A DNA stretch of 64,000 nucleotides from Vairimorpha necatrix (taxonomy: Eukaryota): positions 248,001-312,000 of the forward strand of contig CP142727.1 of NCBI GenBank assembly GCA_036630325.1. Direction: 5' to 3'. The notes under the pieces are model-generated. The model saw only the letters and a list, made by a program, of their open reading frames with translations. It did no database searches and had not been told where the DNA came from. This document shows, piece after piece, positions 24,062 to 50,186 of this stretch (position 1 is the stretch's first letter; each line of letters starts with the position of its first letter). The translations under genes were made by a program, and so were the position numbers.

Positions 24062-25603
24062 TTGAATAACAATGAAAGACAAAAAGTTTTTGTCTTTTTA
24101 CAGACTGGTATTGTAATAGACATAATACAATTTAATAAAGAAAATTATGCAAAGAAGGGATAATGATATTATAATAGAAAAAATAAGTACTAGAGATCTA
24201 AGGTTGCTTGGTAATGAATAAAGTACTAAAAATTTTGTTTATTTTATTTTTCTCCTTTTTTCAATATTCCCTCCCATTATTATAAAAAAATAGCAAAAAT
24301 TTATCCCTCAAAAAATCGAGACAAAACTTTGGTTATCATTTAAGGCGAACATTTATTTGCTCTTATTTTTTGGTTCGATCCTCACTGAAGAGTTTTTTTT
24401 TAATTTTTTACCCCTGGCGTTCGCTCCGAACTGTGACATAAAATGTTACTAAATAAAGATTTAAATATCTAAAAATATAAAAAATATTATTCACAATAAT
24501 GCTTTAAATCTTCTTTGACTCTCAATCCTCCTAATCATATGGGGAGTCAAATATATCTCTGGAAGGTTATATGTCCTACATCTAATAGGTATAGATTCTT
24601 TAAATGACCTTCAATCCCCTTCAAAAGTGTTTGTACGGACACCTGTTTCGATATTTAAAAATGTTTAACTATGATTCGATGTTTAATGGTGCTTATAATG
24701 ATATTCTTTCCGGGTTTTATAGGCCCTCCACATAACAGAATGAACGAGATCCAAAATTACATGCATAAATAAGAACGGAAGCAATGCATCCTTGTTTGCT
24801 TTTTAAAGTCATAAAAATATTCTTTAATCTTCAGTTCTTTGCACCATTTCGAACACCAAAAACTTTAAATCAGCGTCCTCTATGGTATTTAATTTTTCCA
24901 ATCTTACTTTCGTATATCTCTAAGACAATTTCCTTGCCTTCTTTCTGCCCTAGGTTATTCAACTGTCTTAAAAAAATTTTATTTTTACAATTTTTAAGGT
25001 ATAACTAATGTTTTATGCGTTATAATCCAATATTCTTGAGATATGCGCCATTTAAAGTTCCGAATTTTAAAAATAAAAAATTTTAAACAAAATAATATAA
25101 TCTTTGTTATCATTTTAAAATAGAGAATTATTCTAAATTGAAAATCTGCGTTTGCAAGAAGGAAACTTTCTTTTAAATTAAACTATTTCCTTTGGTAATT
25201 TGGCTGCATTAGAACCACATATTGCACATTTCTGTTAATAATTTCTTGCTTAATAGACGTTCATATATGTCTTCTTTCTGTATTACTCAGCAATTCTTTT
25301 ATTTTTTTTTTAGAAAATGAACGATTTTTTAAAAATTCTGATACTGTGATTTTTTACACTATGCTGATTATTGCCCGTTGACAGCAAAATTTCTTTTGAC
25401 ATGTAGCAAAAAAACAATTCTATTATTGTTCTTAAAGATCAATAAGTATTACTAAAAAACGAATTTTAACAAAAATGTGAGAATAATAAATGATTACATA
25501 TCATGATTTTGCATAGAATAAACCAGCCGATTTGATTAAATGTCATTAATCAATGTCATATATCAAAAAACGTCCTTTATATTTTTTATCAAAAAAGATG
25601 CCC

Positions 25604-27319
25604 ATGTTTCTATCATTATTACTTTTTTTATTGAAAATAAAAACCAACAACGATGCTATGATATTTATTACTAAAAATGAAGATGACTACACTCTTTATC
25701 TTGGCTTAAATCATGAGATAAAACACGGTTATCATATGTGCAATTTATTGCAAATTCATAAAGACACAAAAAAAAGAAAAAAATTGATTTTGAAAAACCA
25801 ATTGAATTATCAACCTAATGAAAATAATACTTTCTCTTCTTTTAAAAATGATGGTAGCTTATCTAAATTGATTGATGATGACTTTCCACGTGAAAAAGAT
25901 AAGAAAGAAATGTTTACAAGCTCACAAGAATTTTTTAAAATTAATTTTACATATGACAAACACTATAGTTATTTCATAACAATAATATATTCTAAAAATT
26001 TAGATATAATAAATAATGTATGGAGATCATATCAGTTTTCATTAAAAAAGGATTCGTTGCTTCTACAATTGCCATTAGTCGAGAGAGATGATAATTTCGA
26101 AACTATGAATATGACAATACCTAAAAACAGTGCAAATTATTTCTGTTATATTAGTTTTTCAGATACAGAAGAGAAAATGAAATTAATAAAAAATAAAAAA
26201 CTTATTAAAAATGATATAGTAGACAAAAAGGTTAAACTACCCAGAAAACTTGGTATAAATTATGGAGCAGAAAACAAATCAGAAGCAAGCAAAAACAAAG
26301 ACTGCACAAAAGAAATAAACGAAAACAAAGATGCAAATATTTTAATAAATGAAATAAACGAAAACCAAGATAATAACCATACGGAAAATAAATCAAGCGA
26401 AAGAAAAGCCAAAAACCTTATGGAAGATAGAACAAAAGATTTGGGTGCTAACAAAGAATTTAATTTTACAAAAAATAAATCAAAAGAAGGCAAAAATACA
26501 AACGCTTCTAAAGATGAAACAAGCAAAGATAAAAATATATCCATAAGCAAAACAAAAAAAGCAAGCCAAATTAAAGATAATGATGATAGTATGAAGGACA
26601 AGACAAAGGAAACAAGCGAAACTAAATATAATAATAACATTATAGAAGATATAACAAAGGAAGAACGCGGAAGCCAAGATATCACAAAAGAAAAATGCGT
26701 TAAAAAAGATGAAAATGCCATGGAAGTTGGAATATGTGCAAAGAAAGATAAAAATACCACGGAATATAAAACAAAAAAAGCAAGCAAAAATGAAAATAAA
26801 GATAAAATAGAATCAAAATTAACAACAGAAAATCCAGCTTTAAATAAAGAATACAATAGAGATACAAACTCGAATAAAAATAAAGATAAAACTATTGAAG
26901 CAGAAGATAAAAGAGCAGGAAGAAGCGGAAATATAAATAAAGATAAAAATCAACCAAAACAAAGTCTTGAAATTCAAAAAAATAAACTAAATTCATGTAT
27001 AGGAGACCAGAAAATAACAAAGAATAATGAAAGTACTGAAAAAAATGAACGAACAAGTAATAATAAAAGTATAAATTCAGGAGCACCGGATTCTAATGAA
27101 AATCTAGAGGAGAATGAAACCACCCAACCTTGCGAAAATAAACCTTTGGATCAAATAAATGAATTAATGAACCAACAAAATCAAAATAAACCTAAAAAAA
27201 ATGCCTCTACAGATAATCAACCGAACAAAGATAGTGGTATGCCGTTTATTATGAAATGTGTGCTATTTGGCGCCTTCTTTGGCATTATATTTTTGGTAGC
27301 AAAGAATCTTTACAAATAA
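25604..27319 (+). CDS. type-I membrane protein family X, long-stalk divergent member
   Basis: CCCATG at 25601-25606; N-terminus aligns with 30537/36505/44202 (NND/EA.IFI...F.Y.KH..Y.I...WRS); K/E/N-rich stalk; C-terminal TM. Confidence 0.8.
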   Translation: MFLSLLLFLLKIKTNNDAMIFITKNEDDYTLYLGLNHEIKHGYHMCNLLQIHKDTKKRKKLILKNQLNYQPNENNTFSSFKNDGSLSKLIDDDFPREKDKKEMFTSSQEFFKINFTYDKHYSYFITIIYSKNLDIINNVWRSYQFSLKKDSLLLQLPLVERDDNFETMNMTIPKNSANYFCYISFSDTEEKMKLIKNKKLIKNDIVDKKVKLPRKLGINYGAENKSEASKNKDCTKEINENKDANILINEINENQDNNHTENKSSERKAKNLMEDRTKDLGANKEFNFTKNKSKEGKNTNASKDETSKDKNISISKTKKASQIKDNDDSMKDKTKETSETKYNNNIIEDITKEERGSQDITKEKCVKKDENAMEVGICAKKDKNTTEYKTKKASKNENKDKIESKLTTENPALNKEYNRDTNSNKNKDKTIEAEDKRAGRSGNINKDKNQPKQSLEIQKNKLNSCIGDQKITKNNESTEKNERTSNNKSINSGAPDSNENLEENETTQPCENKPLDQINELMNQQNQNKPKKNASTDNQPNKDSGMPFIMKCVLFGAFFGIIFLVAKNLYK

Positions 27320-27554
27320 ATAATTCTAATTATTAAGTTATTTAAATTGTTTCATAAATATTGTGAAATCTATATTGTGTGTTTCTAGACTATTAAAAAC
27401 GTAATAAATATTATTAATGACGATCATATTTATATATGGTTGAATAGCACATTTAAAAAAACATTTTATAACTACTCAAGCAACATACGTAATTTTTTTT
27501 TCGTTTTACTCTCTCTTATTAAAACCATTGTTAACACTATAATAAAATTAATGG

Positions 27555-27720
27555 TGCAAAATTGTTCCATATTTGATGGATTGTGACGGAATTGTAACTA
27601 ATTTCCATTTCGGGCTCTCCAAAGAGGTTTGATTAGAACTCCAAACGGAAGCATTTAACAGATAAGAATTTTTAAAATGTCATACATGACTAATTTTGTG
27701 AGCAGACTTAGATTAATTAC
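27555..27720 (+). mobile_element. decayed RLE non-LTR 3' fragment
   Basis: gacggaattgtaactaatttcca...gattagaactccaaacggaagcat matches 12585-12655. Confidence 0.55.
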
Positions 27721-29599
27721 TAAATAGATGGATCTATTCGAATTCCTATTATAAGGGTGACTGTTATAACTCCTAGGTGTGATACAAAGATTAAATAAGA
27801 TCTCTGAAGGATAAAAGATTATTAAAGCCATTACATACGAAAACTCTAAATGTTTACTATATTCATGTTCTTTTGCAGTCCTAATCTAGGAAATAAGTCC
27901 ATTTACTATATTTAAGACTACGTTAACATTATTGTTATAATTAAATGTCAGTCAATTTATATTCAATCTATGTAAATTTTTTTCATCCAATTAATTTCGC
28001 CTTAAGGTGACAACAAAAAAATTACAATATAAAAAGCTGAATCAATATAAACCTGTCGAAGACTAGATTACTGGAGGTTTTTTCATTATCTTATTTTAAA
28101 TTTCATACAAGAAGAAAGCAATTCAAATAGAAGCAATATTGGCAAAAATAATTACAACGAACCCTAAAATGATATGCCTACTAAAAAGATTTTTATTTCA
28201 AAAGACCTTTATTAGTTACCTTAACATATTTAAATACTGTTTTGGTATCGAATCATATAGTCACTACTATTATAGATATGCAAGTTCACTTTCGAACTTT
28301 GCGCAGTTTTTAAGCATCGATTTTGATGATGAGTCAATAAGGGTAGCAGATGTGTGACGTGAGTTTCAATTAGTTTATATAAAAAGTTGTCAAAATTTGG
28401 AAAATTATCAACACATAATATTAGGTCGTAAATAAAAGTTAAAATGTTACATACAATACTGAAAAATAATACCATTTTAAGAAATGAACAGGTGTATAAT
28501 ACAAAATTAATTCTTATGAGATATGACAAAAATTAAAAATCAACTACGATAAATGCATATATTTTTATATTATCCTAGAATGTTGTTGGCATCTTGAAGA
28601 TCAATGTAATTAATTATTGTATGGCTTTAAAAATTTTCAAGTTTATTGTCAAAGAAAAATTCTAGTTGTATTGTTAAAATGCTTTCAAATTATTATCCTA
28701 TAGGGGAGTTATTAGTATATTTACTCAGCTCATATGCGCGTCAAATCTTTCATTTCAAATGTTTTACAACGCAATTATTATTAATTTTAATACAATTTAA
28801 TATATGAATAAAAGAAATTTTATAAAAACACTCAATAAACTCAAAAACTTTCAGACAGGTAAAATCCTGCCCTGCGTTTATATAAAAAATAATTTTTCAT
28901 ATCCAATTATGGACAATGCTATTTTATGCAATCCAAAAACGTGTAAATATATATAACTGTTAGAAGTCCAATTTTTATGCGCATCTAATAATGTATCATG
29001 CGTAAAAAACAATAGTGGAGAATTGTTTACCATTAATGCATAAAACTACGTATATTCCATAGAATAGGTTCGTTATATTGTTTTAATAGAACAATTTTTA
29101 AGTATATTTTTTGTATTTGTTTCGATCAAATCTCTTACTGAGTAATAAAATGCAAATATGTTTTCCATAATTGAATTGGCTATGTTTAACTGAGCCAAAG
29201 GGATATTTAATAGATTAAAGAATCCTCGCTAAAAATCAGAAACAGATTTGTACTACTACATGATTTAAGGCATAAAAGATTGAACAAAGTATTCGGTTCA
29301 TGTTAAACATGAGACAAAAATAGAAACTAATAATCGTAGAATTATATTATAAAACCTATACCTTCAAGAAAATTTTAAAAATATATCTAATTTATAAAAG
29401 CGGAAGTTAAAATAGATTTTTTTTTCTACTTAAATATGATGAAAGTGGTTTGGAGACATATCGGACGGGATCCAAGCAGTAGATTTCAAAGGATGAGTTT
29501 ACATAATTGAAAAATGATTTCTTTTAGTATTACACTACGTTTATAAATAATGATAAATTTTTATTGAATCTATTGTTTGGTTTGTTTTCTTCAGTTTGC

Positions 29600-29840
29600 C
29601 TCCATTGACGCGCACTCTCTCTGGTCACACTCCCTTCTAGCTATCTCTACTATGTTCTTAGTTGCAGATCCTCCTTCGGCGAAGTCCTGCCGGTGTTCAA
29701 AAGAGATGCTCTTGAGTGTCTTTTAATAGAACTCAATTGGGTGTAAGCTTCGGTACTGGTCGATAGGCCGATGGAATTAACATAATTACTGTGGTATGTT
29801 AGCACAATTCCGACCCATGTCATGACATATGGGGTTATTT
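29600..29840 (-). mobile_element. decayed RLE non-LTR 3' fragment
   Basis: Reverse translation gives ITPYVMTW and a TEAY...LKDTQEHL-like segment. Confidence 0.5.
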
Positions 29841-30536
29841 GAATTTATAGATAAAAAATAATATGTGATAATTCCGAAACATTGTTTCAGAATCATAATG
29901 TTTCAGATGTCAAGAAGACCATTCTTAGTCGCCAGGACTATCAGCCGTATAGAGGAAAATATTTAAAAAATTGTTTTTTTGTCAGATTTGTTTTGTATAA
30001 ATAATAACAAACTACATACTTATCTTAAATTTTTCATAACTATAACGAGTGTTTTGTCATTACAATAATACATTTATCACCTTTTGTATTTTTTTCAATC
30101 ACATATCATGATACGTATTTCATAGTGTATAAATTTTCATAGTATTTTATTATTTAAAAAATAGCACTAATCCACTAATAAGTTCCACTTTTGGCTTTTT
30201 ACAGCGTCGTTTATTATAATCATTTGCCGCTTGCGTTTGTCAACCTATAGTAATGTTTTACTTTTTTTATTTACCTTTTTTACAAATCTCCTTTTTTTAC
30301 ACATTTTTTGGGTAAATTATAATTTAACACACTAAAAAAATTAATAATTTCATAATATATCATTTACTATTTGTTTGGTATCCTCTGAGAATACAGAAAT
30401 ATAGCGGCTAATTATATATAAATTCTAAATATATGATATGTGTACTCAAATAAGAACTCGTAATTATCAAACCTCCTTTATGATATTTTGAGTAAATGAA
30501 AAAATATGTATAAAAAAATTTCAAAAATAATACCCC

Positions 30537-31358
30537 ATGTTTCTAGCAGCAATTATTTTTATATTAAAAATAGCAGCCAACAACGAAGCTTTGATATTTA
30601 TTGATAATAATGAAGAAGAATGCACGATTTTTTTAGGAGGTAATCTTAAATATAAACCAGGATATTACATTTTGAGTTTATTGGAAAATACTTATAGTAT
30701 GGAACCCCGATTAGAAGGTTCGATTAGAGACCCTATAGCGGTTGCATTTCCTGGCCTGCCTTTTGCATTTGTTCCTTTTGAAATAGATGAGATTTTTTTA
30801 AATAATTTTGATGCAACTTTTAATAACATAGATGAGAAAATCAAAGAAAAGTTTTTAAAATCGAATATTTTTTATAGACTTACTTTTCAATATAACAAAC
30901 ATAGTACATATGCCATACAGTTATTATATCTTAAAACTAGAGATATAGTCAATAAGTTTTGGAGATCAGAAACTTTCGAAATAGAAAAGGGGGATAAATC
31001 TAAACTATTGCCTTTAAACATAGAATCATCTAAAACATTCGAATTTTATAAAGTTAAAATTCCAGAAAGTTGGCAAGAACATTTTCATCATACTAACTAC
31101 AATAACGTTTATGTTCTAAATTACGAAAAAAGCCAACAAAAATTAGGTGAGTCAAATAGCCCGAATATTACTCAAGAAAAAGGGAAGGAAAGTAGCACAA
31201 CAAGTCAATCAGAAGAAGTTTTACATGAAAAAAATGAAAATGCTCCTAACGAGAATCGACCTATTGGAAATAGTGTGTTACTTATATTGGCATGTTTTCT
31301 TCTTTGCATTTCAATTTTTATTTCATACTTGATACTAAGTAAAATCAGAAGAGCTTAA
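30537..31358 (+). CDS. type-I membrane protein family X, copy 1 (short stalk)
   Basis: Signal peptide, ~190-aa domain, S/T/E linker, TM, KIRRA tail; CCCCATG start context. Confidence 0.85.
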   Translation: MFLAAIIFILKIAANNEALIFIDNNEEECTIFLGGNLKYKPGYYILSLLENTYSMEPRLEGSIRDPIAVAFPGLPFAFVPFEIDEIFLNNFDATFNNIDEKIKEKFLKSNIFYRLTFQYNKHSTYAIQLLYLKTRDIVNKFWRSETFEIEKGDKSKLLPLNIESSKTFEFYKVKIPESWQEHFHHTNYNNVYVLNYEKSQQKLGESNSPNITQEKGKESSTTSQSEEVLHEKNENAPNENRPIGNSVLLILACFLLCISIFISYLILSKIRRA

Positions 31359-31476
31359 ATAAAGATTTTATCTTTTTTACTATATTATTTTTTTATTTAT
31401 AAAAAATACTATCTGCCTTTTACTATTTCTACATTAGGTTTATATAAAAAAAAATCTTAGTATAAGTAAATAACTG

Positions 31477-32130
31477 GGTACATGACCGTTTGGAACCCGC
31501 TTTGGGGAAATGAACCCGTATTGAAATTTTAAAGGACCCCCTTTAAAAAAAATGGCAAAATTGGCAAAAACAATGTTTGTTGAGGCAGATGAGGTTTTTA
31601 GTGATGAAATGTACTCATACATGGAATATAAAGAAAAGTTTATTTTGGAAACATTTGATGCTGAAGCGGCGTCGCCTTGCTCGTTTCTGTAACTAGTAGA
31701 AATACTGCTTTTTCCTTGAGGTAATACAAGAAAATGTATAACCTGTTTCTATTATGATCTCTAATCAATGGGTAGCATATGATGCCACATTAGCTAAGCA
31801 AAGGGATGGAGCACAGTACTAAGAAACACTCCATAAATGCTGTAACCTCTAGCGATTCTGAGTCACAACACCATATAATTTAGTTGGTTTTGGCTCGTTT
31901 CTATAAGAGATATTCGATCTTAACATAAACAAAGAAGAACACTATGAGTACCTTTTACAGTTTCACTGGGCTTTCCAAATTCCCAAAAATCACCGGATAA
32001 ATTGTCTTCTGTCATTATTTAAAATAAATCGTTAAGTCCCTTTTTTATTATTTTTTTTATTTTTCCCTTTTTTTGAATTTTTTTAATGCGGGTTCATTTC
32101 CCCAATGCGGGTTCCAAACGGTCATGTACC
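31477..32130. mobile_element. non-autonomous TIR element (GG termini, probably Merlin-type)
   Basis: ~45-bp TIR GGTACATGACCGTTTGGAACCCGC(T/A)TTGGGGAAATGAACCCG; no TSD recovered. Confidence 0.75.
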
Positions 32131-33047
32131 ACTACATCGATAGATTAATCAAGCTGAAAAGAGAAATACATACAATTTCTTAAGTCTTTATCTAATTTTG
32201 ATTCTAAATTATTAGCAATTAATTCTATTCTTCTATATGCAGTTCTAGCTGATAACTGCAACATATTAATAGCTTTTAAAATTTCTGTCTTGTTTTCAAA
32301 ATCTTCAAAAAGAGAATCCGCCGCTGTTATCATAGCCTCTTTTATAATTTCTGCATCAGTAAAGGGTTTTTTTCTTAGCCAACAGATGTGCAACTTTTAG
32401 TGAAGCTACAGTGGCCGCCTTTGAAAGCTCTTTTGGCTTTGTAAAACATCTCTGCTGTTTTACAATTGCTGATTTAAAAGATATCAACTTACTTTTTCGC
32501 AGTTCGGACTTCAGTAAGTATTCAATATTTATATTTTCATGCAAACTATTGAAGTGTCGTTCTAAGTTACTTTTTTTGCATATTGCAATGCTTTTGTTGC
32601 AAAGAAACAAATACACCTACCTTGAAATTCTATAAAGAAAAAATCTTCTTTCCATAAATTATTGAATTGATAATTTCTTCTTTTTTTTGAAAGTTCCTTA
32701 AAGGTGCAAAAAAAATTTGTAATAAATTTTGAAAATTTATTGAACGTTGCATTAGCATGTTTTATGGCATAATTATTGTCAAAATAAATTTTAAAGAACT
32801 TTATAATTGGAATAAATAATTTTATTGTTATAATCATCATATGTAAGGAAATTTTTGTTGAAAGGTCTTTTTGCTTAACGAAAAGTAGATTAACTCCTTA
32901 TAATGTGCTCCTAATATTTAGCATTAAAAATGTAATTGATCAAATTTTTTTCAAAAAATTGAAATTATAAATTTTTAAACTTCTTCTCAATATGAAAAAT
33001 GAAAACGGGCGCACCTGCGCCCGCGGGCGCTTCGTTGCCGACCTCTG
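32131..33047 (-). mobile_element. truncated hAT (Buster/SPIN/Charlie-like) transposon with frameshifted transposase
   Basis: End CAGAGGTCGGCAACGAAGCGCCCGCGGGCGC; fragments CNKSIAICKKSNLERHF, KKPFTDAEIIKE, QLSARTAYRRI and FSFQLD. Confidence 0.85.
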
Positions 33048-33099
33048 AGCTAAAGGATTGTCCGGCATTTGAGTGCATCCACATAGAACCCCATTAGGT

Positions 33100-33900
33100 C
33101 AGAGGTAAGCGATAAGAGTCAACCCCAAAGTGCTTTTGAGTAAAACCGGAAAGGAAGAAACTGTATCGACGTTTACTGTCCCGGTCGCTTCAATCAAAGC
33201 ATCTTTCAGTGACATGGGAATTTGTAATGACAAGGGGAAACTTAACAGAAGTAAAAAAAAAAGAGTTTTACCCACATCCTTTAATACAAAAATTACATGA
33301 TCCACCCGTATTTACAAACTTTGAATTGGAGTTAAAATACCTACAGCTAAATACCTGGGGGAAAGGCAGAGAACAGATACCTCACAAAAAAGGGGGAAAA
33401 AAAATTAAAGGAGCAGTATGCTACCGGAACTTATAAATAGAAATTTTAGCATTATTAAAATATAATGGAAGGGGGAAAGACTCCGACGAAAAAGAAATGC
33501 TTCGTTATACATCTATCGCTTACTCGCGGAAGAAACCAAGAAATGAAAAGAAAAAAGTTAAAGACAATGTGGAATTAAGTGTTCATAGAGTTCGGGACGT
33601 AGTACGAAAGCGAAAACCACCGATAAACATTCATAAGAAAGAAATTGACAAAATGGAAAAGTCATATACTATCCCTACGGTTGGAATATAGGGAGTCTAT
33701 AAATTATATAACCTAAATAACGACGCATTCGCTATTAACTGGAAGTACTTGAAGACGCGTCAACAAATGGTAGTCTAGGAGCCTCATAAGAAGGGGGAGT
33801 GTCAAGTGACAGATCTCCAGTGGTCCTAAGATTACCCTGGAGACTAGAGAATACTATTCTATAAGTATTCTCCTCCTTTACCAAACTATGTTTATGGAGG
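33100..33900 (+). mobile_element. decayed Gypsy-like integrase C-terminus, PPT and start of 3' LTR
   Basis: RDVVRKRKP...SYTIPTVG.GVYKL...INWKYLK (GPY/F-like); purine tract 33788-33799 followed by TGTCAAG. Confidence 0.5.
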
Positions 33901-34487
33901 GAAAATGTATCATATTTTCCCGCCTATAAATATAAAAGAAAATCATACCCATGGGGGTATGAAGATGAGTAGAAACAATAAATATTCTATGTTTAAATCG
34001 CCTTCTCGGACAGATGGGAACCCATCAGTCCACAGTAATGTTTTCATTATTTTTATGCTGTTTAAAACAGATTTTAGATTTTTTTATGATTATTTTTACT
34101 ATGTATAAAATATTAGTATTTTTGTTATTTTATTAGTTTTTTTAGACCAACGAAGATTCAAAATCTTATATTTATGTTCTTTAAATCATTCAAATGTATT
34201 ATATCACATAAAAATTGTAAACTAGCGTCAATAAACTGCTATACTATTAGTTTCATGAATTAATATTAAAATATGACTTTACTTATTTTTAAATTATAAC
34301 ATAAATATTTAGTTGCGTTGAATGTTTATTGTATATATTCAAAACTATTTCTTATTATAAACAGATAAACCATAATAAGTACAGATTTAATCAAGTATAT
34401 AGTAAAATAAAGAAACAAAAAGAAATTGAAAAATGAAAAAATAAATTGTTTTTTTTAGTTATTTTCTTGTTTTATTAAATTTTTTTT

Positions 34488-35597
34488 GGTTAAGTTGCGA
34501 TGTTACCCCCCCCCCCCCTACTAAAAAAATAAAAAAAAAGGTGAAAAAATAAAAAAGGAATAAAATTATACCTCTAAAATGAACATCAAGAATTTTAGAA
34601 AATTAATATATAAGAAAGAGAAATTAATTATATTTCTTCTTGAAAAAAATATATTAAAGGCACCGATGTGCAATAAGTGCATGAAACCCATGACCAAAAT
34701 TAAAAATAATTTGGACAAATATCGTTGTTACTTACGACGAAATGGGACAAAATGCTCAAACAAAGGTAACGTTTACAAACAAAGCATTTTTAAAAGTTCT
34801 AAATTAGATATCGAAGATCTTTTAATTTTGCTGTGTGAATGGATTGAAGGCGTAAGCAATGTTTCGGCTACTATCGAATTAAATATAGATAGTAGTACCG
34901 TATCTCGCTGGTTTACGCGTTTTAATAACGCTGTATTCTTATCCTATTTCAACTACATAAAAAACAAAACCATAAGAGGTTTAAATTACATGGTTGAAAT
35001 AGACGTGACATTGCTTGTTAAAAGTAAAAACCAAAACAGTAGAATTCTTCAATAAAAGTTTAGGCTGTTGGTGGAGTAGTAAGAGGAGACAGCAATTCTT
35101 TTTTTTCGAAATTGTTGAAAATCGATCAAGAACTACTCTTGTCGATTTAATTAAACGAAAAATTGCACCCGGTTTTACAATTATTACTGATTGTTTGCGA
35201 GGTTATATAGGGGGTTCGGAACTATGTCCGGATTATAACTATTTACATTTAACTGTAAATCATAGCCAAAATTTTGTAAATGCAACAACAGGCGCCTACA
35301 CCCAAACAATTGAGGGAATGTGGTCTGTAATTGAAAGGAAAATTCCGCAAAGAAGGAATTTGCCATGGTTCTTTAATGAATCTAATTCGAAAACTTTATA
35401 TAGCTCGTTTTAAGTTAATTTATAGAGAATCACTACTTGAAAAAATGTTCAGCTTTTTTAAAATTAATAATATATCATTATCAAATTACGATTTTAGCGC
35501 CCGAATTTAATTTTAAATTAATTGAATTAATTTTGTTGTCTTTTTCCCCTTTTTTATTTTTTTTGGGTGGTGGGGGAGGTTACATCGCAACTTAACT
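34488..35597 (+). mobile_element. degenerate Merlin transposon
   Basis: TIR GGTTAAGTTGCGATGTTACCCC / GGTTACATCGCAACTTAAC; frameshifted transposase similar to 6221-7171. Confidence 0.88.
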
Positions 35598-35599
35598 GT

Positions 35600-35790
35600 T
35601 GATAGATATGTGTAAACAGTATTCTCAGAGTTAAAAGGCGTTTTGCATCTTAGAACAGATTCTTTTGTGCTTTCAAATTCTTTGGCCGATTGTATTGGTA
35701 TTCTTTTACCCTTATGTTCTTTGCATTGATGCCTTCTCTCAAGTTCGGCTCAGGAGAGATGTAATCTTTCTTTAGTTGCGGTCTTAAACT
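35600..35790 (-). mobile_element. decayed internal fragment of non-LTR retrotransposon (also at 41985-42175)
   Basis: Reverse translation ATKERLHLS*AEL.. resembles the ERLYLPR..LGRGL motif downstream of RT. Confidence 0.4.
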
Positions 35791-36504
35791 ATCTTTTATA
35801 AACTATGTCAATGCATTAAAAAATGTATTTGTATTTGATTAAAAAACATTTTTTTAGAATGAACATGTTTCAGATGTCAGGAAGACCATTCTTAGTCCCC
35901 AGGACTATCAGCCGTATAGAGGAAAATATTTAAAAAATTGTTTTTTTGTCAGATTTGTTTGGTATAAATAATAACAAACTACATACTTATCTTAAATTTT
36001 TCATAACTATAAACGAGTGTTTTGTCATTACAATAATACATTTATCACCTTTTGTATTTTTTTCAATCACATATCATGATACGTATTTCATAGTGTATAA
36101 ATTTTCATAGTATTTTATTATTTAAAAAATAGCACTAATCCACTAATAAGTTCCACTTTTGGCTTTTTACAGCGTCGTTTATTATAACCATATGCCGTTT
36201 GTGTTTGTCAACCTATAGTAATGTTTTCCTATATCAATTTACCTTTTTTACAAATCTCCTTTTTTACACATTTTTTCGGGTAAATTATAATTTAACACAC
36301 TAAAAAAATTAATAATTTCATAATATATCATTTACTATTTGTTTGGTATCCTCTGAGAATACAGAAATATAGCGGCTAATTATATATAAATTCTAAATAT
36401 ATGATATGTGTACTCAAATAAGAACTCGTAATTATCAAACTTCCTTTATGATATTTTGAGTAAATGAGAAAATATGTATAAAAAAATTTCAAAAATAATA
36501 CCCC

Positions 36505-37413
36505 ATGTTTCTAGCAGCAATTATTTTTATATTAAAAATAGCAGCCAACAACGAAGCTTTGATATTTATTGATAATAATGAAGAAGAATGCACGATTTTT
36601 TTAGGAGGTAATCTTAAATATGAACCAGGATATTACGTTTTGAGTTTGTGGGAAAATACTTATAGTATAGAACCCCGATTTGAAGGTTCGATTAAAGACC
36701 CTATAGCGGTTGCATTTCCTGACCTGTCTTTTGCATTTGTTCCTTTTGAAATAGATGAGATTTTTTTAAATAATTTTGATGCAACTTTTAATAACATAGA
36801 TAAGAACATCAAAGAAAAGTTTTTAAAATCGAATATTTTTTATAGACTTACTTTTCAATATAACAAACATAGTACATATGCCATACAGTTATTATATTCT
36901 AAAACTAGAGATATAGTCAATAAATTTTGGAGATCAGAAACTTTCGAAATAGAAAAGGGGGATAAATCTAAACTATTGCCTTTAAACATAGAATCATCTG
37001 AAACACTCGAATTTTTAAAAATTAAAATTCCAGAAAGTTGGCAAGAACATTTTCATCTTATCAACTGCTATACCGTTTATGTTCTAAATTACGAAAAAAG
37101 CCAACAAAATTTAGGAGAGTCAAATAGCCCGTTTATTACTCAAGAAAACCCAGAAAGCTCTAGCATAACAAGTAGACCAGAAAAGGAAGAAAGCGAAAGC
37201 TCTAGCATAACAAGTAGCTCAGAAGAAGAAAGCGGAAGCTCTGTCAAAATAAGTGAATCTGAAAAAGTTGAAGTTTTACATGAAAAAAATGAAAATGGCC
37301 CCAACGAGAATCAATCTAAGGCAAATAATGTGTTGATTATATTGACATGTTCTCTTATTTGCGTTTCAATTTTCATCTCATGGCTGATACTAAGTAAAAT
37401 CAGAAGTGCATAA
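36505..37413 (+). CDS. type-I membrane protein family X, copy 2
   Basis: Paralog of 30537 and 44202; intermediate S/E-rich stalk. Confidence 0.85.
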   Translation: MFLAAIIFILKIAANNEALIFIDNNEEECTIFLGGNLKYEPGYYVLSLWENTYSIEPRFEGSIKDPIAVAFPDLSFAFVPFEIDEIFLNNFDATFNNIDKNIKEKFLKSNIFYRLTFQYNKHSTYAIQLLYSKTRDIVNKFWRSETFEIEKGDKSKLLPLNIESSETLEFLKIKIPESWQEHFHLINCYTVYVLNYEKSQQNLGESNSPFITQENPESSSITSRPEKEESESSSITSSSEEESGSSVKISESEKVEVLHEKNENGPNENQSKANNVLIILTCSLICVSIFISWLILSKIRSA

Positions 37414-38834
37414 ATAAAGGTCTTTTTTCTTATTAAGTTAATTTTTCTTTTTGAACAAAAAAATAATATCAGTTTTCAAACTTTAGCTAAACGTAGCACA
37501 TTTAAAAATGTTTAATTACATTAATAGTAAGTAGTTGTTGTAAACGAGTGTATAACTTATAAGAATAATACATCAACAAAAAAAAACTTTTGTGGTTACT
37601 ATTTGTATTCACAAGTAAAAATTGCCATTGAAGTATTACCTATAAGAGCTGTAACAAAGCTTTAACAATTCGTAGTGGTTGAATTTGTTTCGATAAATCT
37701 ATACTCTAGTGTATCTATAAACATATTACCAGCATAAACCTAGCCCGACTGAGTGTATAAAATGTCATTCAAAGAGTAAGTCGCTTTAGTGAATTAAATT
37801 GTGAAGTTTGACAGGCACGGTTTAGACTGATCTAAGTGCTGGGAATATTGAAATATTGAACTTGAGATATAAATGAATATTTAGTTTTTTAAATTTCATG
37901 TATATGCATTTTATATACTTTAATATTGAATATGGATCTTATAAAATAATGAAACCCCGTCTTTGTGATTTACATCTAGTTGAAAAAATGCTTCCAAGAT
38001 TAAAATAATGTAGAATTAATCTTTTGAATGCACATAGCCACTTGTCGGTGCACAACGAAGCAAAATCCTTGGCAATATCAAGACATCAAACGAAGTTGAG
38101 CAATAGAAGGTCTCGTGGACCATATCCTACAAGATTTTGTAACACGGTAGCTGAAACTAGCGAGAGATTGGTTGTAAACTATAACACAAAATGCAGAATT
38201 AGTGATGTGGCGGTGTAAGGAGCCGTGTGTGCAATACAGATGATTTTAGGGACTTTTGAGTTAGTACGATGATGTATCCTCGGCCTATAACCGCCGTGGT
38301 TGTATTATTTTTGCTAATATATCTTATGGAAGAAGATATGGACATAGGTGATAACTGATTTGCTTTTCGCCAATATTCAAATTGTGCGGCTAAGCTTCAA
38401 CAAGTGTTATTATTTGTAAAATTTTTTAAAGTGAAAATCTTAAAGTATCGCAAAGAAGATATCACAATCTAAGTAATTGAAATCATATGTAAGAAGGTTC
38501 CCTTTCTCTTTAGCAAGAAATAATGGATTTTGAAGCAAAGTAAGGGTATTCGTCATTCTTAGCTGGCTTGATTGCCTGTCTTCTCTCAGCTCCATTTTAC
38601 ATTTAAGATGGGGCTTTTTTATTTTTCAAAGTCTTTCCACATTTGACGATAATAAAATAGGTTCCATTGTGCAGGTAAATCAATTATATTATTATTTTAT
38701 CTTATTATATTTAATTTTTTATATATTTTAAGATGACAAATTACTTATAACCGAAGTTTACAGAAGGTTATAAAGTCATTTTCAAATCTTATAAACATAT
38801 TTACTCTTTATATTTTTTCTTATCCCTCCAGTAA

Positions 38835-39785
38835 ATGTTTTTTTTTAATTTTCTACACGTATTAATTTCTTGTTCTTCTCATATTCCAAATTTCGAACAA
38901 GTTCTTTATTCTTCAATTCTCTGTAGGTTAAAATTTACCACCAGACATCTTACTGACACTTCTATAAATGACATTTGTGAAGATATAAGAAAAAATATAC
39001 CTTTCGATTTGGATATCCTTCATTATGGTGCATATTATGATTTACATCTTATAATAAGCAATAACCAAGATAATTTGATATTAATTATTTATTTTAATGA
39101 GTTATTTGTGTACATCTCGAAAGAATGTGCTAATAATAATAGTTCAAGTACTGAACAGAAGCATAATACAGACGAAAATGCTACTAATAGTACAGAAGAT
39201 CTTCTTATAAATGTGCCCACTGATTATCTCCTGTCATTTCTTAAATGTAAATATTTTTTACAGAACAAAATAAAACATGAAGATTTAAAATTCGTCAACC
39301 TCAAATTGTTAATGTTTCTACGACTAAAATATTCGTCTATTCTCGATCTTAAACTGTCTATCCCAGAATTCCACAATTTATTATTTTACATTTACACGAT
39401 ACAATTCATTACCGACCCGGAAATAATCTTTGATACTCTTATTAATTTTTCGATAACTTATTATATTTTAATTAATAACGACAATATTAAAAATAATATT
39501 AATTATATCTATTATTTAATAGAGAAAATAATGAATAATGTGATACCACTGACATATCTTATGACGAATTTTCAAGAACTAAAAAGTGCTATGATGAGCG
39601 CAGACAGCGAAGATATTTATAAAATACGAAGTTATGGAATTATATTGTTTTTTGAGAGTATACAGTTTAACAAATGTAGGAAATTGGGCATGCCTTGGAA
39701 TTTGATAAGTCAAATAACTATAAAAGAAAGTGATAAATCTAAAATATTAGACAAACTAGAAAAATTAATGGATATATTTTATTAA
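38835..39785 (+). CDS. putative secreted hypothetical protein Y, copy 1
   Basis: 316-aa ORF, signal-like N-terminus, CCC before ATG; near-identical copy at 50187. Confidence 0.8.
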   Translation: MFFFNFLHVLISCSSHIPNFEQVLYSSILCRLKFTTRHLTDTSINDICEDIRKNIPFDLDILHYGAYYDLHLIISNNQDNLILIIYFNELFVYISKECANNNSSSTEQKHNTDENATNSTEDLLINVPTDYLLSFLKCKYFLQNKIKHEDLKFVNLKLLMFLRLKYSSILDLKLSIPEFHNLLFYIYTIQFITDPEIIFDTLINFSITYYILINNDNIKNNINYIYYLIEKIMNNVIPLTYLMTNFQELKSAMMSADSEDIYKIRSYGIILFFESIQFNKCRKLGMPWNLISQITIKESDKSKILDKLEKLMDIFY

Positions 39786-40864
39786 AGTCTAAGTAAATAT
39801 CAAATATAGTTTTAATTAATTAAATGAACCGCATCTGTCAAATACTACGCTGTAATTAGTTATTAAGAATTTATAAATTTTTAGAATCTACAGTTAAAAT
39901 TTTAAGTTGGCGTTCAAATATAAAAAAATATCTTAAGCGTTATCGCCGCTTGAGGAGCATGGATTTCCTTCATAGCTAAATAGGTATTTTTTTGACGTGA
40001 AAATAAAATTTTAATTATGATTGTTGACGTCAGCCGAAAATGTTTTTTTTTATTTGCAAGTAAGAGGTAAGTAACATCTTACATAGAAGAAGAAATGCTT
40101 GGAAATATCTTTATCCAATCGGTACTATGAGATTCTTACTCACTAAAACTTCCTTCATATAATTTGCCGGTGCATCAAGCTCCGCTGTATTATTGGGCTT
40201 TGGCTCCAGGAGAACACTTTCCATTTATACCTAAAATCGCATACAGAGTGACCCCACAGCGGATATACTTATTGGGCATGGGTATCTAAACCCCGAGGAA
40301 TGACATCATACTAACTCAAGGGTCCCTACAATCATCTTAATTGCACACACGGCTCCTTACACGGCCACATCACAGCCTGACAATTATTATTGTCTACGTT
40401 GATCATCAGTCTTTCACTTGTTTCGACCACCGCGTTACAGAATCTTGAAGGAAAGGGTCCACGAGACCTTCTATTGCCCCACTTTCTATTCTCTTAGTAA
40501 GCTCTAGAGTGCACCAGCAATGGGTTTAACGGGCTGCTTCCATTAGATACTTTTATGTATCATTAAGTCACCACAAGGGTGGTACTGTTTTCGCCCTTAA
40601 GCTGCGTTTCTATACTAGATTCTATTTGTGACTGGACACACACAAATATCATTGAATCAACTAAATGACTATCGTAACATTTTTCATCATCCGAGTTGAC
40701 CCGACTGCATCATAAAAGTATGACTTTTTTTATGTTTTGTGAATCTATATTTAATCCAGCCAAATAAAATACAATATCTTCATTTTTTATATGTGTTTAT
40801 ATTCTTTATTTTACTGTTTAGCCGCAGACTGATGATTCTTTATCCTCTTCTAGTTTTTAAATTT

Positions 40865-41982
40865 AGTTTAAATTGCGATGTTACTCCAACCCCCCCCCAC
40901 CCCTAAAAAAATAAAAAAAGGGGGAAAAAATAAAAAAGGTTTAAAAAATGCCCCAAAAATGAATAAAAAGAATTTTAGAACATTAATATATAAAAAAGAA
41001 AAAAAATTAATTATATTTCTTCTTGAAAAAAATATATTAAAGGTACCAATGTGCAATAAGTGCATGGCACCCATGACCAAAATTAGAAATAATTTGGACA
41101 AATATCGTTGTTACTATCGACGAAATGGGAGAAAATGCTAAAACAAAGGTAATATTTACAAAGAAAGCATTTTTAAAAGTTCTAGATTAGATATCGAAGA
41201 TCTTTTAAAAATGCTGTGTGAATGGGTTAAAGGTGTAAGCAATGTTTCGGCTACTATCGAATTGGATATAGATAGTAGTACCGTATCTCGCTGGTTTACG
41301 CGTTTTAATAACGCTGTATTCTTATCCTATTTCAACTACATAAAAAACAAAACCATAAGAGGTTTCAATTACATGGTTAAAATAGACGAGACATTGCTTG
41401 TTAAAAGTAAAAACCAAAACGTTAGAATTCTTCAATACCAAGTTTAGGCTGTTGGTAGAGTAGTAAGAGGAGACAGCAATTCTTTTTTTTCGAAATTGTT
41501 GAAAATCGATCAAGAACTACTCTTGTCGATTTAATTAAACGAAAAATTGCACCCGGTTTTACAATTATTACTGATTGTTTGCGAGGTTATATAGGGGGTT
41601 CGGAACTATGTCCGGATTATAACTATTTACATTTAACTGTAAATCATAGCCAAAATTTTGTAAATGCAACAACAGGCGCCTACACCCAAACAATTGAGGG
41701 AATGTGGTCTGTAATTAAAAGGAAAATTCCGCAAAGAAGGAATTTGCCATGGTTCTTTAATGAATCTAATTCGAAAACTTTATATAGCTCGTTTTAAGTT
41801 AATTTATAGAGAATCACTACTTGAAAAAATGTTCAACTTTTTTAAAATTAATAGTATATCATTTTTAAATTACGATTTTAGCGCCCGAATTTAATTTTAA
41901 ATTATATTTAATTAATTTTGTTGTCTTTTTACCCTTTTTTATTTTTTTTGGGTGGTGGGGGAGGTTACATCGCAACTTAACT
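40865..41982 (+). mobile_element. degenerate Merlin transposon at duplication junction
   Basis: Same family as 34488-35597, with the same right flank but a different left flank; multiple frameshifts and stops. Confidence 0.85.
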
Positions 41983-42190
41983 GTTGATAGATATGTGTAA
42001 ACAGTATTCTCAGAGTTAAAAGGCGTTTTGCATCTTAGAACAGATTCTTTTGTGCTTTCAAATTCTTTGGCCGATTGTATTGGTATTCTTTTACCCTTAT
42101 GTTCTTTACATTGATGCCTTCTCTCAAGTTCGGCTTAGGAGAGATGTAATCTTTCTTTAGTTGCGGTCTTAAACTATCTTTTATAAACTA

Positions 42191-42711
42191 CTAGCGTATG
42201 CTTTCCCGTTTTAAAAACGGGATCTAAATGTTTAGTTTTTTTAATATGTATTTCTCCTTTTAATCTTTTTGTGAATTTCCATTTTGGGAAGAAGGAATTG
42301 AAAAGGAGAAAACATGATTTTGAAAAATACTTTTTAGTAACATATAAGGAGTAAATTTGATCTAAAAACATTTAATAATTATAATGAGATAAGTTTGGGA
42401 ACTTCTAAGCTCAAGTTTTATCACTTTTATTTAACTTTTTTTTTGGTACATGTTTTGTGATTTTTTTCTAGAAGGGTTGAATAAATTCTAAAAAACGATT
42501 CTGACGATATTTTGAGACCAAGCCTTTTAAAATTAAGAATTAAAACAAAAAAGTTTTAACATTTAGTATACGCACTTACAATTATCAAATTAAAACATTA
42601 AATCTAAAAACGATATTATATTAACATAATAAGCTATTATAAGAAGTTGACATTTTTAAAATCACAAAAAAGAGGGGTAAAAAATTAAATAAAATTCTTT
42701 TATATATATGA
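42191..42711 (-). mobile_element. non-autonomous Helitron
   Basis: Minus strand 5'-TC...hairpin (42204-42222)...CTAG-3'; inserted between A and T with no TSD; empty site near 35805. Confidence 0.88.
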
Positions 42712-43008
42712 TGTCAATGCATTAAAAAATGTATTTGTATTTGATTAAAAAACATTTTTTTAGAATGAACATGTTTCAGATGTCAGGAAGACCATTCTTA
42801 GTCCCCAGGACTATCAGCCGTATAGAGGAAAATATTTAAAAAATTGTTTTTTTGTCAGATTTGTTTGGTATAAATAATAACAAACTACATACTTATCTTA
42901 AATTTTTCATAACTATAAACGAGTGTTTTGTCATTACAATAGTACATTTATCACCTTTTGTAATTTTTTCAATCACATATCATGATACGTATTTCATGAA
43001 GTATAAAT

Positions 43009-43793
43009 TGTCACAGTCCGGAGCGGACGCCCGTCCGCAGCGGACGCAAGGGGTAGAAAATAAAAAAAAATCTCTTCAGTGAGGATCAAACCAAAAAATA
43101 AGAACAAATAAATGTTCGTCTTAAATGACTGCCCAAATTTTGTCACGAGTTTTTAGGGGTATATTTTTGTTTTATTTTTATAATAATGGGAGGGAATAAT
43201 GAAAAAAAGAGAAAAAAAACATAAACAAAATTTTTAGTACTTTATTCATTTCCAAGCAATCTAAGATCCCTAGTACTTATTTCATCTATAATAATTCCAT
43301 TATCATCTTTTCTGCATAATTTCACTTTATTAAATTGTATTATGTCTATTACAATACCAGTCTGTAAAAAGACAAAAACTTCTTGTCTTTCATTGTTATT
43401 CAATTTTATTTTCATGACATTAAAATTAAAGAAATTTTAAATACAAATTACAAATAAACACCAATTTTTTTTTATTTTTTACCCTTCTCAAGTAAGCATT
43501 TTCCCTGGCGTCCGCTCCGAACGGGTATTTTTTTTTTAATTTTTTACTCTTCTCAAGTAAGCATTTTCCCCTGCGTCCGCTCCGAACGGGTATTTTTTTT
43601 TTTAATTTTTTACTCTTCTCAAGTAAGCATTTTCCCCTGCGTCCGCTCCGAACGGGTATTTTTTTTACTTAATTTTTTACCCTTCTCAAATAAGCATTTT
43701 CCCCTGCGTCCGCTCCGGACGGATATTTTTTTACTTAATTTTTTACCCTTCTCAAGTAAGCATTTTCCCTTGCGTCCGCTCCGGACGGTGACA
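43009..43793. mobile_element. non-autonomous TIR element (TGTCAC...GTGACA), copy 2, five ~66-bp subterminal repeats
   Basis: TSD TAAAT (or ATAAATT); empty sites near 30128 and 36097. Confidence 0.9.
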
Positions 43794-44201
43794 TAAATTT
43801 TCATAGTATTTTATTATTTAAAAAATAGCACTAATCCACTAATAAGTTCCACTTTTGGCTTTTTGAAGCGTCGTTTATTATAACCATATGCCGTTTGTGT
43901 TTGTCAACCTATAGTAATGTTTTCCTATATCAATTTACCTTTTTTACAAATACCTTTTTCTACATATTTTTTTGGGTAAATTATAATTTAACACACTAAA
44001 AAAATAAATAATTTCATAATATATCATTTACTATTTGTTTGGTATCCTCTGAGAATACAGAAAATATTGGCTAAATTATATATAAATTCTAAATATATGA
44101 TATGTGTACTCAAATAAGAACTCGTAATTATCAAACCTCCTTTATGATATTTTGAGTAAATGAGAACATATATATATAAAAAATTTCAAAAATAATACAC
44201 C

Positions 44202-45533
44202 ATGTTTCTAGCAGCAATTATTTTTATATTAAAAATAGCAGCCAACAACGAAGCTTTTATATTTATTGATAAAAAGGGAAAAGACTGCACGATTTTTTTA
44301 GGAGATAATCTTAAATATGAACCGGGATATTACATTTTTAGTTTATTACAAAATATATCTAGTACAGAACCCCAATTTGAACGTTTGATTAAAAACCCTT
44401 CAAAGGTTTTTGAACCTGACCTGCCTTTTACATTTGTTCCTTTTGAAAAAGATAAGAATTTTATAAATAATTTTGATGCAACTTTTAATAACATAGATAA
44501 GAACATCAAAAAAAAGTTTTTAAAATATAAAAATTGTTATAGTCTTACTTTTCAATATGAAGAATCCAAAAAATATGCCATACAGTTATTATATTGTAAA
44601 ACTGGAGATATAGTCAGTAAATTTTGGAGATCAGAAACTTTCAAAATAGAAGAGTGTGTCAAATCTAAACTATTGCCTTTAAGCATAGAATCATCAAATC
44701 CTCGCAAATTAAATGAAATTAAAATTTCAGAAAGTTGGCAAAACCATTTTGATCGTATCGACCTTTATACCGTTTATGTTCTAAATCACAAAAAAAGCCA
44801 AAAAAAATTAAGTGAGTCAAATAACCCGGTTTGCACACAAAAAAAAGGGGAGGAACCTAGCAAAACAAATAAACCAGAAACAGAAAAACCAGAAAGCTCT
44901 AGCAAAACAAATAAACCAGAAACAGAAACCCCCGGAAGCTCTAGCAAAACAAGTGAACCAGAAGAAGTAGAATCAAACAGCCCTAGCATAACAACTAAAT
45001 TAGAAACAGAAACCCCCGGAAGCTCTATCAAAACAAATAAACCAGAAACAGAAACCCCAGAAAGCTCTAGCAAAACAAGTGAATCAAAAGAAGTAGAATC
45101 CGGAAGCTCTAGCATAACAAGTAGCTCAGAAAAAGTAGAACCCGGAAGCTCTATCAAAACAAATAAACCAGAAACAGAAACCCCAGAAAGCTCTAGCAAA
45201 ACAAGTGAATCAAAAGAAGTAGAATCCGGAAGCTCTAGCATAACAAGTAGCTCAGAAAAAGTAGAACCCGGAAGCTCTATCAAAACAAATAAACCAGAAA
45301 CAGAAACCCCAGAAAGCTCTAGCAAAACAAGTGAATCAAAAGAAGTAGAATCCGGCAGCCCCAGTATAACAAGTAAATCAGAAAAAGTAGAAGTTTTACA
45401 TGAAAAAAATGAAAATGGCCCCAACGAGAGTCGATCTAAGGCAAATAATGTGTTGATTATATTGACATGTTCTCTTATTTGCGTTTCAATTTTCATCTCA
45501 TGGCTGATACTAAGTAAAATCAGAAGTGCATAA
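44202..45533 (+). CDS. type-I membrane protein family X, copy 3 (repeat-expanded stalk)
   Basis: Paralog; stalk built of 42-aa repeats. Confidence 0.85.
   Translation: MFLAAIIFILKIAANNEAFIFIDKKGKDCTIFLGDNLKYEPGYYIFSLLQNISSTEPQFERLIKNPSKVFEPDLPFTFVPFEKDKNFINNFDATFNNIDKNIKKKFLKYKNCYSLTFQYEESKKYAIQLLYCKTGDIVSKFWRSETFKIEECVKSKLLPLSIESSNPRKLNEIKISESWQNHFDRIDLYTVYVLNHKKSQKKLSESNNPVCTQKKGEEPSKTNKPETEKPESSSKTNKPETETPGSSSKTSEPEEVESNSPSITTKLETETPGSSIKTNKPETETPESSSKTSESKEVESGSSSITSSSEKVEPGSSIKTNKPETETPESSSKTSESKEVESGSSSITSSSEKVEPGSSIKTNKPETETPESSSKTSESKEVESGSPSITSKSEKVEVLHEKNENGPNESRSKANNVLIILTCSLICVSIFISWLILSKIRSA
45015..45392 (+). repeat. in-frame 126-bp tandem repeat (~3 units plus degenerate upstream unit)
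   Basis: CCCGGAAGCTCTATCAAAAC at 45015, 45141 and 45267. Confidence 0.9.
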
Positions 45534-50064: not shown

Positions 50065-50186
50065 TTTTCTTTTTATATTTTAAGATGACAGATTACTTAT
50101 AACCAAAGTTTACAGAAGGTTATAAAGTCATTCAAAAATCTTATAAACATATTTACTCTTTATATTTTTTCTTATCCCTCCAGTAA

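Follow-up and report, generated by a model that had tools for sequence, protein, structure and literature searches.

We describe a tandem array of four paralogous genes in a 64,000-nucleotide (nt) stretch of contig CP142727.1 (assembly GCA_036630325.1, positions 248,001 to 312,000), here called the window, whose own numbering supplies all coordinates below. On balance, we favor the view that these genes encode a small, Nosema/Vairimorpha-restricted family of single-pass, surface-type proteins, arrayed in a transposon-rich stretch and diversifying by duplication, conversion, stalk expansion and fast replacement. All four copies have an N-terminal hydrophobic leader, a domain of ∼190 amino acids (aa), a low-complexity stalk of 33–331 aa and a C-terminal hydrophobic anchor. 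An earlier sequence-only reading of this DNA had described the same layout, with a signal-peptide-like leader and a variable stalk, and the open reading frames (ORFs), the alignment and tblastn agree on it. In order of position, the genes and the one extended stalk repeat are:

25604–27319, + strand: copy 1, 571 aa, the most divergent paralog
30537–31358, + strand: copy 2, 273 aa, with a 33-aa stalk and its own type of anchor and tail
36505–37413, + strand: copy 3, 302 aa, a chimera, with a 62-aa stalk
44202–45533, + strand: copy 4, 443 aa, with a 203-aa stalk of Ser, Glu, Thr, Lys and Pro
44856–45392, + strand: repeats in the copy 4 stalk, comprising 12.8 copies of a 42-nt unit that are arranged as a 126-nt super-repeat present 4.3 times, 91% matches

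The first ∼200 residues can be aligned across the four ORFs, with the leader lying within residues 1–22; the first 17 residues are identical in copies 2 to 4, and the domain of copy 1 is 28–33% identical to those of the other three. Hydrophobic residues occupy positions 2–10 and a small-residue motif comes next, ahead of residue 16, a pattern by which the leader is a probable cleaved signal peptide. At the opposite end, every copy carries a single hydrophobic segment of ∼24 aa (KD19 of 2.5–2.9), which is preceded by a stretch rich in Asn, Ser, Gly and Ala, lies 2–6 residues from the C-terminus, and is followed by a mostly basic tail of 2–6 aa. This anchor may be a transmembrane (TM) helix with a 2–6-aa tail or, possibly, a glycosylphosphatidylinositol (GPI) signal; the basic tail mildly favors the TM anchor. 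A tblastn search of the window with the domain found exactly four loci and no other copy or fragment. The ATG is immediately preceded by CCC(C) in copies 1 to 3 and by CACC in copy 4, and the CCC directly 5′ of the ATG at 25604 supports that codon as the start of copy 1. Copies 2 to 4 have TAAATAAA at the stop, where the stop codon overlaps AATAAA. Such CCC-type start and AATAAA contexts are usual for microsporidian genes.

The stalks differ in kind as well as length. That of copy 1 (331 aa) is rich in Lys, Asn and Glu and non-repetitive, and runs into the C-terminal anchor; that of copy 4 is 26–29% Ser and 19–23% Glu, with Thr, Lys and Pro; and that of copy 3 contains 2.2 copies of the same 42-nt unit (37153–37242). 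By analogy with polar tube protein 1, for which O-mannosylation is reported (PMC7040029), the stalk is probably O-mannosylated. Two antisense ORFs, at 26260–26856 (− strand, 198 aa) and 44786–45619 (− strand, 277 aa), overlap the stalk DNA of copies 1 and 4 and are most likely by-products of low-complexity repeats.

Mosaic origin of copy 3 and the duplicated units

Copies 3 and 4 differ, in an ungapped alignment, at 66 of their first 209 residues and 92 of the corresponding 627 nt, with no difference in the 17-aa signal peptide and only 2 nt changed in the last 40 codons. The number of differences per 100 nt is 14–22 across 36585–37284 and 0–10 elsewhere, and this peak of divergence is not due to chance. 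The sequence-only reading had noticed the same contrast, and its count (∼65 of 209 without indels) was sound, as were the patches it listed in the genes starting at 36505 and 44202, NNEEE/KKGKD at residues 24–28 and NKHST/EESKK at residues 120–124; the pair that it called copies 2 and 3, however, is the third and fourth by position. Copies 2 and 3 differ at 21 of 209 residues, and the off-by-one numbering therefore hid the copy-2-like nature of the copy 3 ectodomain. Its further description of near-identical surroundings applies to the signal peptide, the TM segment and tail, and the neighboring gene Y (10 of 316 aa different), but was somewhat generous for the noncoding flanks, which are 5.6% different.

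We made a three-way DNA alignment of copy 2 (A), copy 3 (B) and copy 4 (C), from which a 790-nt insertion upstream of copy 4 was excluded. The nt differences by segment were:

Far 5′ flank: A–B 4.1%, B–C 1.7%, A–C 5.8%
Near 5′ flank (249 nt): A–B 3.6%, B–C 8.0%, A–C 9.6%
Signal peptide: A–B 0, B–C 0, A–C 0
Ectodomain (codons 18–209): A–B 4.7% (27 of 576 nt), B–C 16.0%, A–C 17.0%
Last 39 codons (anchor and tail): A–B 18.8%, B–C 1.7%, A–C 18.8%
3′ flank: A–B 32%, B–C 3.4%, A–C 32%

The odd one out is C at 111 of the 223 variable sites, A at 81 and B at 22, all three differing at the remaining 9, and the sites fall into 39 runs where 95 would be expected. One dominant switch falls where the domain gives way to the stalk, between 37144 and 37153 (maximum chi-square 66.4, permutation p = 0.001): over ∼36310–37144 copy 3 sides with copy 2, and from 37153 on it sides with copy 4, while the 5′ flank is a patchwork of several shorter alternating tracts. 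By this alignment, copy 3 is a chimera: its 5′ flank and ectodomain are of the copy 2 lineage, and everything from the end of the stalk through the anchor into the 3′ flank is of the copy 4 lineage. Its chimeric nature accounts for a variable ectodomain between near-identical ends when copy 3 is compared with copy 4, and the sharp contrast of the ectodomain with its flanks is largely the product of recombination or gene conversion. The mosaic thus bears out the earlier suggestion that conversion acts on this family, in the form of conversion or ectopic recombination.

Copies 3 and 4 each lie in one unit of a tandem segmental duplication, identified by blastn self-comparison, with a unit length of ∼6.4 kilobases (kb). 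The blocks, insertions and associated genes are:

34484–40863, + strand: unit B, with a Merlin/IS1595-type transposase remnant (match to DDE_Tnp_IS1595), copy 3 and gene Y
40862–52219 (40862–46858 plus 50066–52219), + strand: unit C, with a transposase remnant, copy 4, gene Y′ and two insertions
29877–31413: unit A, a shorter third homology block around copy 2
35844–37148, + strand: tract of unit B matching unit A, 96.1% identical to 29877–31180, running from the 5′ flank of copy 3 through its signal peptide and ectodomain and ending, on the 3′ side, at the 37144–37153 breakpoint
∼46859–50065: gypsy-type insertion of ∼3.2 kb, in unit C only, between copy 4 and gene Y′
43003–43792: 790-nt insertion, upstream of copy 4 only, containing a 66-nt unit repeated 4.9 times at 43465–43788
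6221–7171, 34579–35413, 40999–41739 and 52685–53248: the four Merlin/IS1595-type transposase copies or remnants of the window
38835–39785, + strand: gene Y, 316 aa, with its duplicate, gene Y′, at 50187–51137

Unit B is 95%, 94.2% and 93.9% identical to the corresponding parts of unit C, the two units abut exactly (40862/40863), and their noncoding DNA differs at 180 of 3201 aligned nt (5.6%; 3.9–8.3% per segment). The gypsy-type insertion has ORFs at 46880–48826 and 48865–49992, with a zinc knuckle and a YMDD reverse-transcriptase motif, and its absence from unit B indicates that it inserted after the duplication. Parts of the 790-nt insertion are 88–95% identical, in reversed orientation, to DNA flanking a gypsy element at 20685–20879 and 24056–24431, and because of this similarity it may be derived from a long terminal repeat. 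The transposases heading units B and C are 95% identical, each split into two frames, and since the duplication unit begins exactly at the Merlin/IS1595-type element, that element may have mediated the duplication.

The exact abutment of the two units also raises the question of whether they are diverged haplotypes of a polyploid parasite that the assembly has set in tandem, so that the differences between copies 3 and 4 would be allelic dimorphism; the genome-statistics table of PMC10759460 gives V. necatrix as tetraploid. We regard such an artifact as highly improbable: the units differ by the 3.2-kb retroelement, the 790-nt insertion and 420 nt of stalk repeats, and copy 2 is a third, separately flanked locus that has the copy 3 type of ectodomain.

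It is also very unlikely that in situ diversifying selection alone drove copies 3 and 4 apart, and only in the ectodomain, after the duplication of units B and C. Such selection would be in keeping with a nonsynonymous-to-synonymous ratio (ω) of 1.4–1.8 between the two and with an island of divergence that coincides with ectodomain and stalk, but it does not accommodate a copy 3 ectodomain that is 95.3% identical in nt to that of copy 2 when their anchors are 18.8% different, a statistically sharp breakpoint, synonymous sites in the island that have diverged roughly twice as much as the flanks overall (p = 0.02), or an anchor as diverged between copies 2 and 4 as the ectodomain (18.8% and 17.0%). 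The three-way comparison has thus already largely refuted it. The more general lesson is that a hypervariable region between identical flanks in a pair of paralogs can come from a chimeric copy, and that selection should not be invoked until a third copy has been examined.

Rate and pattern of ectodomain change

Apart from its mosaic origin, the ectodomain has accumulated replacements quickly. For codons 18–209 of copies 3 and 4, the NG86, LWL85, YN00 and pairwise maximum likelihood (ML) estimates gave 0.16–0.20 nonsynonymous substitutions per site (dN), 0.11–0.14 synonymous substitutions per site (dS) and ω of 1.40–1.79; ectodomain ω was 1.52–1.74 between copies 2 and 4 and 1.36–1.96 between copies 2 and 3. 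The gene Y pair served as an internal control for the age of the duplication. With 10 of 316 aa different, dS of 0.03–0.05 and ω of 0.15–0.41, gene Y evolves under purifying selection, and the ratio of nonsynonymous to synonymous changes was 80:12 in the ectodomain vs. 11:8 in gene Y (Fisher p = 0.006). The sequence-only reading had proposed dS as elevated as dN as the mark of simple old paralogy or conversion, and here the outcome was mixed, in that ectodomain dS (0.11–0.14) is itself about twice the flank divergence (p = 0.02) and dN (0.16–0.20) is higher still.

The noncoding DNA offers a second yardstick. Under the substitution spectrum of the flanks, 76% of changes other than stops are expected to be nonsynonymous, as compared to the 87% observed (binomial p = 0.006–0.008), and the probability that 92 random changes would produce no stop codon is 0.001, so that selection has maintained the reading frames. 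Synonymous divergence equals that of the adjacent 249 nt of upstream noncoding DNA (p = 0.42, 0.57), whereas nonsynonymous divergence per site exceeds it (p = 0.0007, 0.002). In a three-taxon GY94-F3x4 model, ω was 1.48, and values of 0.5 (p = 1.4 × 10−4) and 0.3 (p = 5.8 × 10−9) were rejected. Copy 1 was left out as an outgroup for polarizing the changes because it is only ∼30% identical.

The changed positions are clustered (73 runs vs. 87.7 expected, P = 0.01), with patches of change at residues 24–28, 109–112, 120–124, 151–153 and 166–172 and unchanged blocks of 8–15 residues at 36–44, 89–103 and 140–147. More than half of the replacements between copies 3 and 4 (35 of 66) alter charge, nine of them being full reversals, and the net charges and isoelectric points (pI) of the four ectodomains are:

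Copy 3: −9, pI 4.9
Copy 2: −4, pI 5.65
Copy 4: +7, pI 9.07
Copy 1: +5, pI 8.95

We read these data as an ectodomain in which purifying selection is weak overall but the fold is kept, and in which some sites are probably under selection for change.

Relatives, fold and neighboring genes

The census of the family covered the window, by tblastn, and the protein databases. Pfam gave no match for copies 1 and 4 and only sub-threshold noise for copies 2 and 3. A hidden Markov model (HMM) search of 1.84 billion representative proteins returned six matches at E ≤ 0.001, three of which were the window's own proteins. Two others were V. necatrix proteins of 340 and 331 aa (E = 1.9 × 10−7 and 3.5 × 10−6) that have the same leader-domain-stalk-anchor layout and are annotated as “uncharacterized” (VNE69_04070) and “putative SP-containing membrane protein”; the sixth, a repetitive protein in which a 37-residue stretch matched nine times, was probably spurious. 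Apart from the window's own proteins, word-indexed protein searches recovered a single V. necatrix protein, scoring in the second of them being confined to the 7999 candidates with most words in common, and the protein databases searched contained no additional member from the assembly. A scan of metagenome contigs with the domain alignment yielded 591 pattern stretches, none of which was confirmed by tblastn. Among sequencing runs, four were listed for this stretch, two of them containing part of it (word shares 0.32 and 0.24), and no RNA run was among those listed. By these sequence searches, the family is confined to the Nosema/Vairimorpha clade.

In the supplementary table of PMC10759460, VNE69_04070 has a signal peptide and TM segment by DeepTMHMM and a spore RNA-seq count of 116; in the same table VNE69_04030, which is probably, if not certainly, the second homolog, has a signal peptide, a TM segment and a spore count of 77. 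The annotation table of V. necatrix chromosome 4 showed no clear neighbors shared with the array. We found no paper on this protein family in the open-access literature, where the family has no name to search by.

Two AlphaFold2 models of the domain, the second of which used six sequences, place seven to eight strands and two helices within residues 17–163, with a helix at residues 2–13 and a strand from residue 17, and the head domain is accordingly modeled as what is probably a small beta-sandwich. The structure prediction called for by the sequence-only reading thus produced beta-rich models of low confidence but no fold match above background. Foldseek found nothing in the PDB at E ≤ 0.001 (best TM-score 0.26), and the protein atlas (ESM Atlas) gave only resemblances to CBM32/F5-F8-type-C, with feature scores of 0.82–0.85, below the 0.9 threshold for a lead.

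The window is AT-rich (GC 22–36%) and contains gypsy-type retroelements and Merlin/IS1595-type transposase remnants along with compact, intron-free eukaryotic genes, among them those for a HECT ligase, Rpb3, a GPN-loop GTPase, an HMG-box protein and a triose-phosphate-transporter-family protein. Among named relatives, the GPN-loop GTPase best matches those of Nosema granulosis (52% identity) and Vairimorpha apis (56%), with Encephalitozoon and Ordospora next. Gene Y, for which no Pfam family was found, also has CCC near its start. In the spacer between copy 2 and the transposase, at 32145–32840 (− strand), are three short overlapping ORFs that, judged by eye, look like fragments of a larger decayed gene, possibly a transposase.

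Nature of the family and its proposed role

Several results weigh against the account of a fast-diversifying surface family that we favor. The one-ratio ω of 1.48 is not significantly greater than 1 (twice the log-likelihood difference = 1.68, p = 0.195; three taxa), and an NG86-site binomial test gave p = 0.10, so that the diversifying selection proposed earlier is suggested, but not proven, by ω of 1.4–1.8. Although M2a was preferred to M1a in a custom implementation (∼9% of codons with ω ∼16, twice the log-likelihood difference = 16.05, p = 0.0003), its signal comes from 3 sequences and 18 codons with 2–3 differences (13 expected, P = 0.04), and codons with multiple hits could, with no selection involved, come from multi-nucleotide mutation or from micro-conversion. 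Our neutral proxy, the upstream noncoding DNA, may be constrained by a promoter or homogenized by conversion. Changes were depleted at hydrophobic positions only as a trend (22 of 82 vs. 44 of 110, p = 0.066) and not significantly in predicted strands (20 of 73 vs. 46 of 119, p = 0.12). Both AlphaFold2 models have low confidence (predicted local distance difference test scores of 59 and 56, predicted template modeling scores of 0.63 and 0.60), and the best VIA-align matches, C2 domains, reached Z 6.1, where 7–8 is the typical best for unmatched models. Finally, the low spore RNA counts of the V. necatrix homologs (116 and 77) do not indicate a role at the spore stage.

The first of these points leads to the possibility that the copies are simply redundant young duplicates that drift neutrally under relaxed constraint (ω ∼1) and are shuffled by conversion, with no selection for change. 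We consider this unlikely, although it deserves to be taken seriously: ML cannot reject ω = 1, the majority class of M2a lies at ω = 1, and in the tract shared by copies 2 and 3 coding and noncoding DNA have diverged alike (4.7% vs. 3.6–4.1%). Neutral drift is nonetheless hard to reconcile with frames that are all intact despite the 1-in-1000 chance of a stop-free outcome from 92 random substitutions, with 209 codons free of indels, with conserved blocks and clustered changes, with a domain still recognizable in copy 1 (∼30% identity) and in the V. necatrix proteins, and with the excess of nonsynonymous changes over the flank-spectrum expectation (p = 0.006–0.008).

If, as we favor, these are surface-type proteins, then the product would sit on the parasite plasma membrane or the spore surface with its N-terminal domain outward, where contact with host molecules would drive its fast change. 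We infer this placement because the profile matches that of the host-exposed proteins of Reinke et al. 2017 (PMC5423893), which are enriched in signal peptides and TM domains, clade-specific, rapidly evolving and produced by local duplication. A signal peptide and TM segment, on the other hand, indicate entry into the secretory pathway only, and the protein could instead belong to an internal membrane (endoplasmic reticulum, Golgi, polaroplast or polar tube) and never meet the host, with low constraint on a lumenal spacer as the source of its fast change. The low spore RNA counts of the homologs are compatible with such a location, which we think improbable but worth keeping in view, whereas ω at or above 1, the charge patches, the clade restriction and the tandem amplification match the host-exposed proteins of PMC5423893 and would be atypical of housekeeping secretory components.

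The array therefore resembles something already known, and we class it with the rapidly evolving, clade-specific microsporidian proteins that bear signal peptides and TM segments, host exposure being suggested by analogy. NemLGF-type families (PMC5423893) likewise combine targeting signals, restriction to one clade, absence of a known domain, local duplication and rapid change, and the TM-bearing members of such families are proposed to lie in the parasite membrane facing the host cytoplasm. They differ in having at least 10 members per genome by definition, as compared to four here (in the window and the protein databases), in coming from Nematocida without sequence similarity to this array, and in that their exposure was shown by proteomics and not suggested by sequence. 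There is also a likeness to the small secretory-pathway proteins of the microsporidian spore wall or plasma membrane, EcEnP2/SWP3 (described as “Transmembrane”), AlocSWP2 (GPI), the sporoplasm surface protein EhSSP1 and NbTMP1 (PMC7040029, PMC7836179, PMC6703431), some of which are C-terminally anchored and some of which bind host factors. None of the four was matched in the HMM search of 1.84 billion proteins, and mosaic copies in a tandem array are described for none of them; NbTMP1, with its TM segment at the N-terminus, was dismissed as a relative on that ground.

More distant systems share some of these features. Fungal cell-surface adhesins of the Als, Flo and Epa type, which carry an N-terminal beta-sandwich domain and a stalk of Ser/Thr-rich tandem repeats, also have a beta-rich head, a repeat stalk whose length varies among paralogs and a C-terminal anchor, and they too change repeat number and recombine between paralogs; homology to them was not detectable, however, and the heads here are much smaller, anchoring in a glucan wall does not apply, and the fold assignment is weak (Z 6.1). 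The dimorphic merozoite surface protein genes of Plasmodium falciparum likewise have two deeply diverged ectodomain types with segments moved by conversion (PMC10919680), but those are alleles held in a population under vertebrate immunity, whereas the types described here are paralogs that occur together in a single assembly, that of an invertebrate parasite. The sequence-only reading had suggested a host-exposed adhesin or variant antigen family; the repertoire of four genes (in the window and the protein databases) does not fit a classical variant-antigen system of the var or VSG type, with its large silent repertoire, switching and mutually exclusive expression.

Four processes change the array: segmental duplication of the ∼6.4-kb unit; ectopic gene conversion or recombination among the copies, including the exchange of head modules; expansion of the stalk repeats; and unusually fast replacement in the N-terminal domain, at a near-neutral or faster rate and with many changes of charge. 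Through such an exchange, copy 3 acquired the 5′ flank and ectodomain of the copy 2 lineage but retained from the copy 4 lineage its 3′ flank, its anchor and the end of its stalk. A bolder version, which we think quite unlikely, would make of the array a miniature cassette system for surface variation, in which acidic heads (pI ∼5; copies 2 and 3) and basic heads (pI ∼9; copies 4 and 1) are kept by balancing or diversifying selection and swapped as modules by conversion whose breakpoints fall on the conserved boundaries of signal peptide and stalk, the length of the stalk setting the distance of the head from the membrane.

The Nosema/Vairimorpha group includes pathogens of silkworms and bees. 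The family described here is unnamed, its only database relatives being “hypothetical” proteins, and yet a secretory leader and a membrane anchor occur in it together with a head whose changes outpace those at silent sites, reversal of charge between copies and exchange of head modules between genes. It is thus a compact and testable candidate for a host-interaction surface protein in this group.

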